Shown here: positions 57,633-59,554 of the stretch, piece after piece
Layout of the letters: each line of letters starts with the position of its first letter
Position numbering within the stretch: the first letter of the stretch is position 1
DNA from: Planctomycetota bacterium
Lineage (GTDB): Bacteria; Planctomycetota; B15-G4; SIAN01
Reading direction: 5' to 3'
Length of the DNA: 64,000 nucleotides
Assembly: GCA_031409275.1 (NCBI GenBank)
Contig: JANNXA010000040.1
Span: forward strand, 1-64,000
Translations under genes and position numbers: made by a program
Notes under the pieces: generated by a model
The model's database searches: none
What the model was told of the DNA's origin: nothing
Seen by the model: only the letters and a program-made list of their open reading frames with translations

Positions 57633-58145
57633 TCAGTTCTTGGGGCGATTCGCGGACGCGCGAACCACGCGTCCACCGCCGGCGAGCGCCGCCTGGACCG
57701 CGGCGGCCTCGGCCGCCTTGGCAAGCGAGTCGAAGAAGATCGTCGCCCGTGCGTCGAGCGTGGCGATGCCGATCGACGCGGTCAGTTGCATCGACTCGCC
57801 CCCCAACGAGAACGGCTGCTTGGCGACCGCGGCGAGGATCCGATCGGCAACCGCTCCGGCGCCTTCCATGGTCGCGTGCGGGAGGAGCAGTGCCAGGCGA
57901 TCGTGATAGTGGCCGATCGCGTCGCTCGCGCGCAGTTGCGCCTGGATCAACGGCACGAGCGCTGAGAACGCCTCGTCGCGGACGCTGCCGCCGAACTTCT
58001 CGCGCAGCGGGTCGATCCCATCGAGACCGACCGCGATGCAGCTGAGGGGGAAGGCGTAGCGGCGCGCGCGGCCGAACTCGATGCGGAGCGCGTTCTGGAA
58101 CTGTGCGTAGGCGAGGAGAGGAGTACCGGTGCTGAAGGGGTCCAT
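57633..58145 (-). CDS. Stand-alone degenerate GGDEF-domain protein
   Basis: EFGRARRY..PLS, LRASD, LLLP, LTASIGIA, KAA. The GG(D/E)EF site reads HYHDRL. GAGG RBS. Confidence 0.82.
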   Translation of the reverse strand: MDPFSTGTPLLAYAQFQNALRIEFGRARRYAFPLSCIAVGLDGIDPLREKFGGSVRDEAFSALVPLIQAQLRASDAIGHYHDRLALLLPHATMEGAGAVADRILAAVAKQPFSLGGESMQLTASIGIATLDARATIFFDSLAKAAEAAAVQAALAGGGRVVRASANRPKN

Positions 58146-58196
58146 ACCGTCCTCTTCGTGAGTCGGGGCTGAGGTCGCCATCGGCTCGGTACGAAC

Positions 58197-58233
58197 AAAA
58201 AAAAGAGTTTCCCCCGCGGACGGGGGAAACTCT
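58197..58233 (-). terminator. Strong intrinsic terminator-like hairpin
   Basis: Perfect 13-bp stem AGAGTTTCCCCCG/CGGGGGAAACTCT with a 4-nt loop. The 8-A run is a U-tract on the minus strand. Confidence 0.75.
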
Positions 58234-58249
58234 CTTGCACCTCGACTTC

Positions 58250-58600
58250 CGTTGATCAGAGATGGCGGTTGGGGAGGGGAAAGACTCCGACCACCGGAAG
58301 GATGCGAGGCGCAATCAGTCTTTGGTTGGTTGGTTCCGCAGTTCCATGGTCACTTGAGGCGTGAAGGTCAGATACCCCGAGTCGTGGTCGTTGCCAGTGA
58401 AGCTGCTGAACTTTCGTTCTTGCGCTCTCGATCCTTCAGCCCGACCACAAGAGGCGGAACGCGTTTCCGTACAAGCTGTGGTCATCTCGTCGAGGAGTCG
58501 AGGAGCGCGAACGCGGATGGGCAAGGTAGCCTCGATCGACGCTTGATTGAAGGGCTCGCTTTTCTTTCGATCTGAAACAGATCTAAGGAGAACCACTTAG
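58250..58600. ncRNA. Candidate structured non-coding RNA, family not recognised
   Basis: AT-richer than its surroundings, no convincing ORF, many nested complementary segments (see findings). Confidence 0.45.
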
Positions 58601-59554
58601 TTGTTCGGATTCCAATCCGCCCGCGAGGATCGCCGACGCGCGGCGCGATTCCGAACCCTCGCGACGCTCCTCGACGGAGGCGTCTCGCTGCTCACGGCGC
58701 TGCCCCGGGTGGGCATCGCGCCACCCGCGACGACGACGCCGCCTCACGCCTTCCCCATCGGGCAGCTGCTCGCCCCGGGGGACGGGCGTCCGGAACTCGC
58801 CGCCGAACGGGCCGCGATCGATGCCGCCTCCCGAGCCGGCGAACTGCCTGCCACGCTGATCACGCTCGCGGATGACCTCGAGATCCTCCTCGCCGCTCGT
58901 CGGACGTTCCTCGCGCGGCTCGCCTATCCCCTCCTCGTGCTGCACCTCACGCCAGTCGCCGCCACGACGGCCGACCTGCTGACCCGACCCGGCCGCTTCT
59001 TCGGCAACGTGGCGCTCGCCTACCTGCTGCTGTGGTCGATTCTGGCGGCGATCGCGGCCGCGCTCGCGCACCTCCAGCGCAGCGCCGCGGGGATGGCTCG
59101 ATTGGCCCGGCTGCCGCTGCTCGGTCCGCCGATCGTCCTCTTGGCGCGCGCCCGCTACTTCCGCCTGCTCGCCGTCCTGGAGGGCTCCGGCGTGCTGCGT
59201 CACGAAGCGCTGACGACCGCGACGGCGGCACTCGGCACGGCGATCGAAACGGATGGCTACGCCGAGTTCGCGCTGCGCATGCGACGGGGAGACCCGCCCG
59301 AGCAGGCGCTCGCGGCGTTGCACCGGCTGCCGATGGAAGAGCAAGGCGAACTCGCGGCCGCGCTCACCGTCGGCAGGTTCGAGGCGGCGGCGCGTCGCTG
59401 CGCCGACCGTGCCACCGAAGTGTGGCAGCGCGCGACGTCGCGCCTCGCCAAGGCGGCCGGAGCGTGTGCCTACGCGACCGCAGTCGTCCTGGTCGCCGTG
59501 AGCGTGCTGCGCTTCTACACGGCCTATCTCGCGGGCTTCAAACCGCCGCGCTAG
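58601..59554 (+). CDS. Type II secretion system F / PilC-like inner-membrane protein
   Basis: TAAGGAG RBS; FRTLATLLDGGVSLLTAL, AGELP, LAYP, LPLLGP, LLAVLEGSGV. Confidence 0.75.
   Translation: MFGFQSAREDRRRAARFRTLATLLDGGVSLLTALPRVGIAPPATTTPPHAFPIGQLLAPGDGRPELAAERAAIDAASRAGELPATLITLADDLEILLAARRTFLARLAYPLLVLHLTPVAATTADLLTRPGRFFGNVALAYLLLWSILAAIAAALAHLQRSAAGMARLARLPLLGPPIVLLARARYFRLLAVLEGSGVLRHEALTTATAALGTAIETDGYAEFALRMRRGDPPEQALAALHRLPMEEQGELAAALTVGRFEAAARRCADRATEVWQRATSRLAKAAGACAYATAVVLVAVSVLRFYTAYLAGFKPPR

Follow-up and report, generated by a model that had tools for sequence, protein, structure and literature searches.

What is encoded in the gap between a GGDEF-domain gene and a divergent PilC-like gene of a planctomycete genome? 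The window, by which we mean the whole 64,000-nt stretch of contig C40 that was analysed, contains such a gap at 58197..58600. A preliminary description of this DNA had pointed to its AT-richness and its flanking genes, both of which were borne out (GC 0.54-0.60 versus 0.63-0.75 in nearby windows; a GGDEF-domain and a T2SSF/PilC-like gene), and had proposed a plus-strand, possibly 6S-like RNA of about 330 nt. Our analysis leaves little doubt that the gap holds a real, conserved RNA element, whose conserved part lies on the minus strand, from 58314 to 58197. The features of the locus, in the order of minus-strand transcription, are as follows:

58601..59554, plus strand: T2SSF/PilC-like gene, divergent and upstream of the RNA; a neighbour only, missing at the locus in families f4 and f5
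58523..58551, minus strand: predicted sigma70-type promoter (-35 at 58551-58546, 17-nt spacer, -10 at 58528-58523)
58315..58517, minus strand: variable 5' region of the predicted transcript, including the inner rod at about 58416-58513; its inclusion follows from the predicted promoter
58235..58314, minus strand: imperfect hairpin of 25 bp with arms 58314-58285 and 58261-58235; z=-4.79 on its own
58262..58284, minus strand: unpaired C-rich loop of 23 nt; core 58278-58264 nearly invariant, unpaired probability 0.98
58197..58234, minus strand: intrinsic terminator of 13 perfect bp followed by 8 U, the predicted 3' end of the RNA; 11 of 13 pairs show two-sided changes among 30 homologues
57633..58145, minus strand: degenerate, stand-alone GGDEF-domain gene (Pfam GGDEF, E=1.8e-14)

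Folding and covariation both support this assignment. The minus strand from 58320 to 58196 folds with z=-6.84, a value matched by 0 of 200 shuffled sequences, and the hairpin alone drops to z=-2.18 when read from the plus strand. Across the 30 homologues, 92.4% of alignment cells are paired, and both partners vary at 17 of 23 pairs. This level was not reached in any of 500 shuffles, a test that is inflated by the relatedness of the 30 homologues, and slid registers yielded at most 61% pairing. The upper stem of 10 pairs is 93% paired over the same homologues, with two-sided changes at six pairs, while the lower stem forms in each sequence but cannot be aligned by sequence. Upper-stem cells comprise 56 G-U versus 9 A-C combinations, and in 33 of 38 sequences (one of the 38 being a chance match from Lachnotalea) it is the C-rich strand that gives the better fold; on these two grounds, the RNA is placed on the minus strand. 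The loop contains an anti-Shine-Dalgarno-like CCUCC, and 19 consecutive loop columns are invariant in the 30 order members. Seventeen are invariant in 46 phylum-wide sequences, which had themselves been chosen by the loop motif. When 58190-58610 was compared with 60 relatives by BLAST, one match was full-length and the rest fell within 58197-58315; identity to relatives was 0.70-1.0 for the hairpin versus 0.20-0.82 for the 5' region.

Given these data, a plus-strand 6S-like RNA of about 330 nt closed by outer helices is very improbable. The ten helix words that we checked and the side hairpin are all in place and the words pair as described, but the fold that they were meant to form (58260-58600) reaches only z=-1.06, with 17 of 100 shuffles folding as well; the same span scores -1.87 on the minus strand. 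The three outer helices, complete here (8/8, 5/5 and 7/7 pairs), retain 4/8, 4/5 and 4/7 pairs in the nearest relative and 0-3/8, 0-4/5 and 0-3/7 in five other family members, for which alignment of this divergent stretch is uncertain. These unconserved helices would pair the RNA with the region of its predicted promoter. The inner rod fared somewhat better, with z=-2.17 on the plus and -1.05 on the minus strand and GACCACA/TGTGGTC kept at 7/7 in the nearest relative, but at 3-5/7 in others. The side hairpin at 58267-92 is kept at 8/8 in all seven family members, with arms so nearly invariant there that they show little covariation. G-U pairs had been taken to favour the plus strand; their usage, together with the z-scores, favours the minus strand instead. 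There is no plus-strand terminator, and the perfect 13-bp terminator, rightly seen to point to the minus strand, is no orphan but the predicted 3' end of the conserved RNA itself. No 6S model matches the locus, the true 6S RNA of this genome is found on contig C51 (59.3 bits), and the RNA described here has a terminal loop rather than a central bubble. The PilC-like gene is oriented such that the RNA cannot be its leader, and a leader of the GGDEF gene is unlikely, as many homologues are followed by a convergent gene. What stands of the preliminary description is a stand-alone, undescribed non-coding RNA, perhaps even of similar length (about 320 nt), though its strand, structure and family had been misjudged. 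The suggested collection of homologues revealed covariation that is real for the minus-strand hairpin and terminator, whereas the outer helices are not conserved.

Where the RNA begins is less clear-cut than where it ends. The terminator is clear; promoter-like sites are enriched overall but weak in the window's family. The predicted promoter matches only 3/6 plus 3/6 consensus positions and a promoter scan reported none, while its -10-like hexamer is aligned in 7/7 family members. From its position, transcription would start near 58514-58518, giving a transcript of about 320 nt here and of 247-335 nt across the family. The start site would then mark the beginning of the inner rod, which would form a variable 5' domain, in keeping with a region whose folding ranges from z=-3.4 to +1.2 in seven family members (-1.3 here). 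Upstream of 46 loci, promoter-like sites scoring at least 9 occur 12 times on the RNA strand versus 3 times on the other, mostly 70-95 nt before the loop, a spacing from which RNAs of some 100-170 nt would follow in most relatives. The window's family lacks a good site so near the loop. By eye, DnaA-box-like words are visible upstream of the RNA promoter at six relatives' loci (L008, L010, L012 and L026-L028), none occurring within one mismatch in the window, and DnaA control of the promoter is possible in those lineages.

Several other readings of the gap were considered and set aside. A 93-aa minus-strand and a 107-aa plus-strand open reading frame have no Pfam match, neither is called by a self-trained gene finder, and the internal ATG is not kept in relatives as judged by eye. 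As for an origin of replication, 58191-58620 contains no DnaA box even when one mismatch is allowed, and GC skew does not switch along contig C40 (20-kb bins). A phage copy or integration site is equally unsupported, with 0 matches to the RNA in viral contigs. At the start of the PilC-like gene, an imperfect palindrome (about 58601-58615) is conserved in seven aligned family members and could be an operator. As a LexA operator it was set aside, since the box patterns tried gave no match upstream of three lexA-like genes or recA. The three LexA-like genes lie at C40:2882-3046 (in the window), C40:153532-153726 and C7:46540-46716, and a GTTC-N7-GTTC-like direct repeat is present upstream of both recA and the window's LexA-like gene.

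How widespread is the RNA? A covariance model, built from 30 of the genomes in question, recovers it, mostly as a single copy, in 41 of the order's 42 genomes; the lone genome without a match is 84% complete and split into 900 contigs. BLAST gave matches in 40 of 41 other order genomes. A scan of all GTDB species (185,579 genomes), which used this order's loop variant only, located the exact 22-mer of the order at 35 sites, of which 32 are titled Planctomycetota, two are unclassified and one is from Lachnotalea. The Lachnotalea sequence lacks both the open loop and the U-tail and is dismissed as a chance match. A looser, exact 18-mer is present in 54 of 401 phylum genomes, namely 28/28 in the order and 26/373 outside it (10 families), against 2/401 for the reversed pattern. 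A stem of 10 or more expected pairs encloses the motif in all 26 outside copies; the loop is open in 23 of them, and 25 have a U-tail. Among 20 metagenome matches, the corresponding numbers are 16, 16 and 17. In several lineages outside the order, the U-tract forms the end of the hairpin itself. The 18-mer was not found in the large families f8 (0/24), f9 (0/14), f17 (0/23) and f29 (0/19). A second model (R2) was built without base pairs, stem registers differing between lineages, and tests sequence only; at E<=1e-6 it detected 25 of 151 genomes, all of them carriers of the exact motif, and drew the same boundary. Overall, the 15-nt loop core is nearly constant across 15 families of Planctomycetota.

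Additional copies and borderline sequences were also seen. One genome carries a full but diverged second copy, which has a terminator and a changed loop (G009:C71, L242), and two others have second exact loop cores in weaker hairpins without a U-tail (G107:C19, L232; G101:C40, L233). Weak model matches in G122, G154 and G153 cover the terminator only, and that in G080 resembles the loop only in part; none was accepted as a member. The hairpins of G127:C6 (L104/L231) and G161:C51 (L106/L230) have C-rich loops whose core is only partly alike, in families otherwise without the RNA. These are possible distant relatives and were not counted.

With regard to function, we favour, at a probability of roughly 55%, a trans-acting small RNA whose C-rich loop pairs with G-rich ribosome-binding sites and thereby represses translation. 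The open CCUCC loop, in a genome in which neither Hfq nor CsrA was found (92.9% complete), recalls the chaperone-independent anatomy of the C-rich-loop sRNAs 6C, sX13, RepG and, above all, Rli31. Presumably transcribed from the predicted sigma70-type promoter and terminated at 58197, the RNA would rely on its long stem to hold the loop open, which might let strong G-C pairs form unaided by a chaperone, as has been described for 6C and sX13. The loop is predicted to capture the G-rich ribosome-binding sites of mRNAs and to repress their translation in trans. In this genus, the predicted target is murE, which is part of a cell-wall/division cluster; targets would differ between lineages.

The murE start region ranks first of 4129 predicted start regions, with a perfect 13-nt match over the Shine-Dalgarno sequence. 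A match of this length was reached by 45 of 2000 shuffled loops, and by 66 of 2000 when the Shine-Dalgarno core was held fixed. The site is kept in 5/5 genomes of the genus (identity 0.92-1.0 versus 0.47-0.60 in the flanks), includes a Val codon used 4% of the time, and recurs with two mismatches in 2/2 genomes of a sister genus. Its conservation is limited to 7 of 8 genomes of the family: the match is absent from genus g3 and from all 19 listed of 22 loci of other families (best -26.5), and the exact pattern is found in 0/12 in f2 and 0/16 in f4. With a site restricted to the genus and a single sister genus, murE cannot explain the conservation of the loop across lineages. The site also encodes the FtsI tail and follows a promoter-like hexamer, and either could be the reason for which it is kept. 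At the ftsI-murE junction of seven family genomes (L166-L171, L195), this -10-like hexamer is seen by eye just before the complementary site; it suggests an internal murE promoter, with a leader of about 18 nt that would consist almost wholly of the predicted pairing site.

Over 800 start regions, the real loop performed no better than shuffled ones (mean -12.0 versus -11.8+/-0.7). Among 805 orthologue pairs shared with the distant carrier G180, four ranked in the top 5% in both genomes, compared to 2-6 for 12 shuffled loops; this comparison read 2.17 of about 2.6 Mb of G180 and covers two genomes in depth. In five carriers, near-perfect complements of the loop turned up about as often as those of the reversed control, and none of 30 fetched complements, five of which were the RNA's own locus, lies at a convincing gene start. 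The spoVG leader was rejected as a target (median -16.2 versus -16.5 for shuffles, 61 of 100 as good). Rli31 itself is described as having a 14/14 match to spoVG, yet it does not regulate spoVG (PMC4959528). No deeply conserved target was found among those compared, and a protein-binding role is also possible.

The neighbourhood of the RNA bears on whether it acts in cis. Just downstream, on the same strand and starting only about 15-50 nt past the U-tract, lies the GGDEF gene, which adjoins the RNA at 35 of 39 loci in the order and at 5 of 18 outside it. Such proximity would suit a leader or attenuator in which a conditional terminator controls the gene and the loop senses a ligand or RNA. 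We nevertheless regard this explanation as improbable. The downstream gene is convergent at 8 of the 18 outside loci, seven of these genes having a Pfam match, which argues against a riboswitch or attenuator leader and means that the RNA need not act in cis; moreover, no antiterminator appears in the folds, and a hairpin that itself ends in a U-tract, as in several outside lineages, does not fit this arrangement. The GGDEF context is confined to this order plus two outside families. In seven others, the RNA is found among carboxypeptidase-regulatory-repeat, Sua5-LMWPc or HEAT genes, and no GGDEF orthologue was found in carriers of this second context; conversely, family f9 has the orthologue and the RNA was not found there. 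Given RNA-only lineages, GGDEF-only lineages and convergent downstream genes, the RNA is not obligatory for the GGDEF protein, either as its leader or as its partner, and the gene is best viewed as a conserved neighbour, as far as genome comparison can tell. The GG(D/E)EF signature is absent from all 26 aligned orthologues. These proteins form a stand-alone GGDEF-fold family of about 170 aa with invariant residues of its own, present in this order, f23, f47 and f9.

A 15-nt core that is nearly constant across 15 families without a shared mRNA target would fit a single partner. The loop might thus be bound by, or act as a decoy for, some conserved protein or machine, such as an RNA-binding regulator, Rho, or a KH- or S1-type protein, an alternative that we consider rather unlikely. 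In vitro, Rli31 is bound by SpoVG at its C-rich apical loop (PMC4959528), and SpoVG is present in 38 of 42 order genomes; however, it also occurs in most non-carriers (101 of 151 phylum genomes overall) and in 0/3 RNA-carrying f16 genomes. SpoVG matches in the order (L151, L362-L391) are about 115-120 codons long versus 82 model positions, indicating an internal insertion. The catalytically degenerate GGDEF protein is a candidate by adjacency, against which stands the mismatch in distribution described above. CsrA was not found in this genome, and the RNA has a single loop here, whereas sponges usually repeat their binding site. A bolder and still more doubtful variant sees in the RNA an ancient housekeeping-type molecule shared by several deep lineages of Planctomycetota, its fixed loop read by one conserved partner instead of by a changing set of mRNAs. 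The loop could then serve as an anti-Shine-Dalgarno decoy with a general effect on translation initiation, or be the ligand of some conserved RNA-binding protein, and the catalytically dead GGDEF protein could be a cofactor in some lineages; if true, this would constitute a new RNA-protein regulatory system rather than another antisense sRNA. Pairing outside start regions, with the RNA acting as a sponge or guide on non-coding RNA, rRNA, coding or 3' regions, would likewise explain an invariant loop without a start-region target, and the loop forms a duplex of -26.9 with a region of RNase P RNA (shuffles -21.7+/-2.0), one of six RNAs tried. With duplexes for 16S, a 23S region, 6S, tmRNA and SRP all within shuffle range, and no perfect loop complement longer than 13 nt elsewhere in the genome, we give it a small chance, on a par with or marginally above that of the cis-acting leader. 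The trans-acting small RNA remains our preferred reading.

For the PVC group as a whole, a 2022 count lists only eight sRNA families in Rfam (PMC9029176). The RNA presented here adds a covariation-supported family with an unusually rigid loop, shared by 15 Planctomycetota families. It opens a way to study post-transcriptional control in a phylum whose cell division is unusual, in a genome where neither Hfq nor CsrA was found, and its best predicted target lies in the cell-wall/division cluster. The fixed loop set against the lack of a conserved target makes for a sharp and testable puzzle.

Is the RNA new? The preliminary description could not match it to tmRNA, RNase P, SRP or a riboswitch, and Rfam 15 gives no match at E<=1 at the locus and four at chance level (E 1.5-7.6). 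Eight homologue loci gave three chance-level matches, all below the gathering score, of which one overlaps the loop (Fluoride, E=0.16). This comparison covers 6C, Rli31, sX13, RepG and RsaE insofar as Rfam includes them. Models for tmRNA, RNase P and SRP have no match at the locus and find their RNAs on other contigs of the genome. A CsrB/RsmZ-type sponge does not fit one C-rich loop without repeated GGA loops, whereas the exposed C-rich loop on a conserved stem that is seen here is what characterizes C-rich-loop trans-acting sRNAs. The loop sequence did not occur in a full-text literature search, and listings and abstract openings, subscription journals being outside this coverage, contained no Planctomycetota sRNA of this kind. 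The main texts of PMC11109978 and bioRxiv 10.64898/2026.09.15.751765 make no mention of Planctomycetes, and their supplements, like those of other motif screens, could hold the family. Judged by its sequence and predicted fold, the RNA is likely a new sRNA family of a known functional kind.

Comparison with known systems supports this placement. 6S RNA (RF00013) is also a stand-alone structured RNA in an AT-richer gap, but the RNA here has no central bubble and does not match its model. The actinobacterial 6C sRNA is widely conserved in GC-rich bacteria without Hfq and pairs its C-rich loops with G-rich ribosome-binding regions (PMC6486639), as predicted here; it has several C-run loops as opposed to one fixed-sequence loop of 21-25 nt, and its model has no match. 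sX13 of Xanthomonas, about 115 nt long, combines stable stems and apical C-rich loops with Hfq-independent repression via G-rich motifs (PMC3771888). Its three stem-loops with short 4C/5C motifs contrast with our one long loop, again without a model match. RepG of Helicobacter, for which no model match was found either, pairs a C/U-rich loop on its terminator hairpin with G-rich leaders (PMC8295292) and resembles those lineages in which hairpin and terminator are one; its targets are G-repeats and, in that account, it is reported only within Helicobacter. The closest likeness is to Rli31 of Listeria monocytogenes, in which a terminator follows a long 5' hairpin that bears a C-rich apical loop; Rli31 has a long perfect match to one leader and requires its loop for function (PMC4959528). 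The RNA described here belongs to another phylum, has no Rfam or sequence match to Rli31, and differs in that its loop core is kept across many families and its hairpin doubles as the terminator in some lineages.
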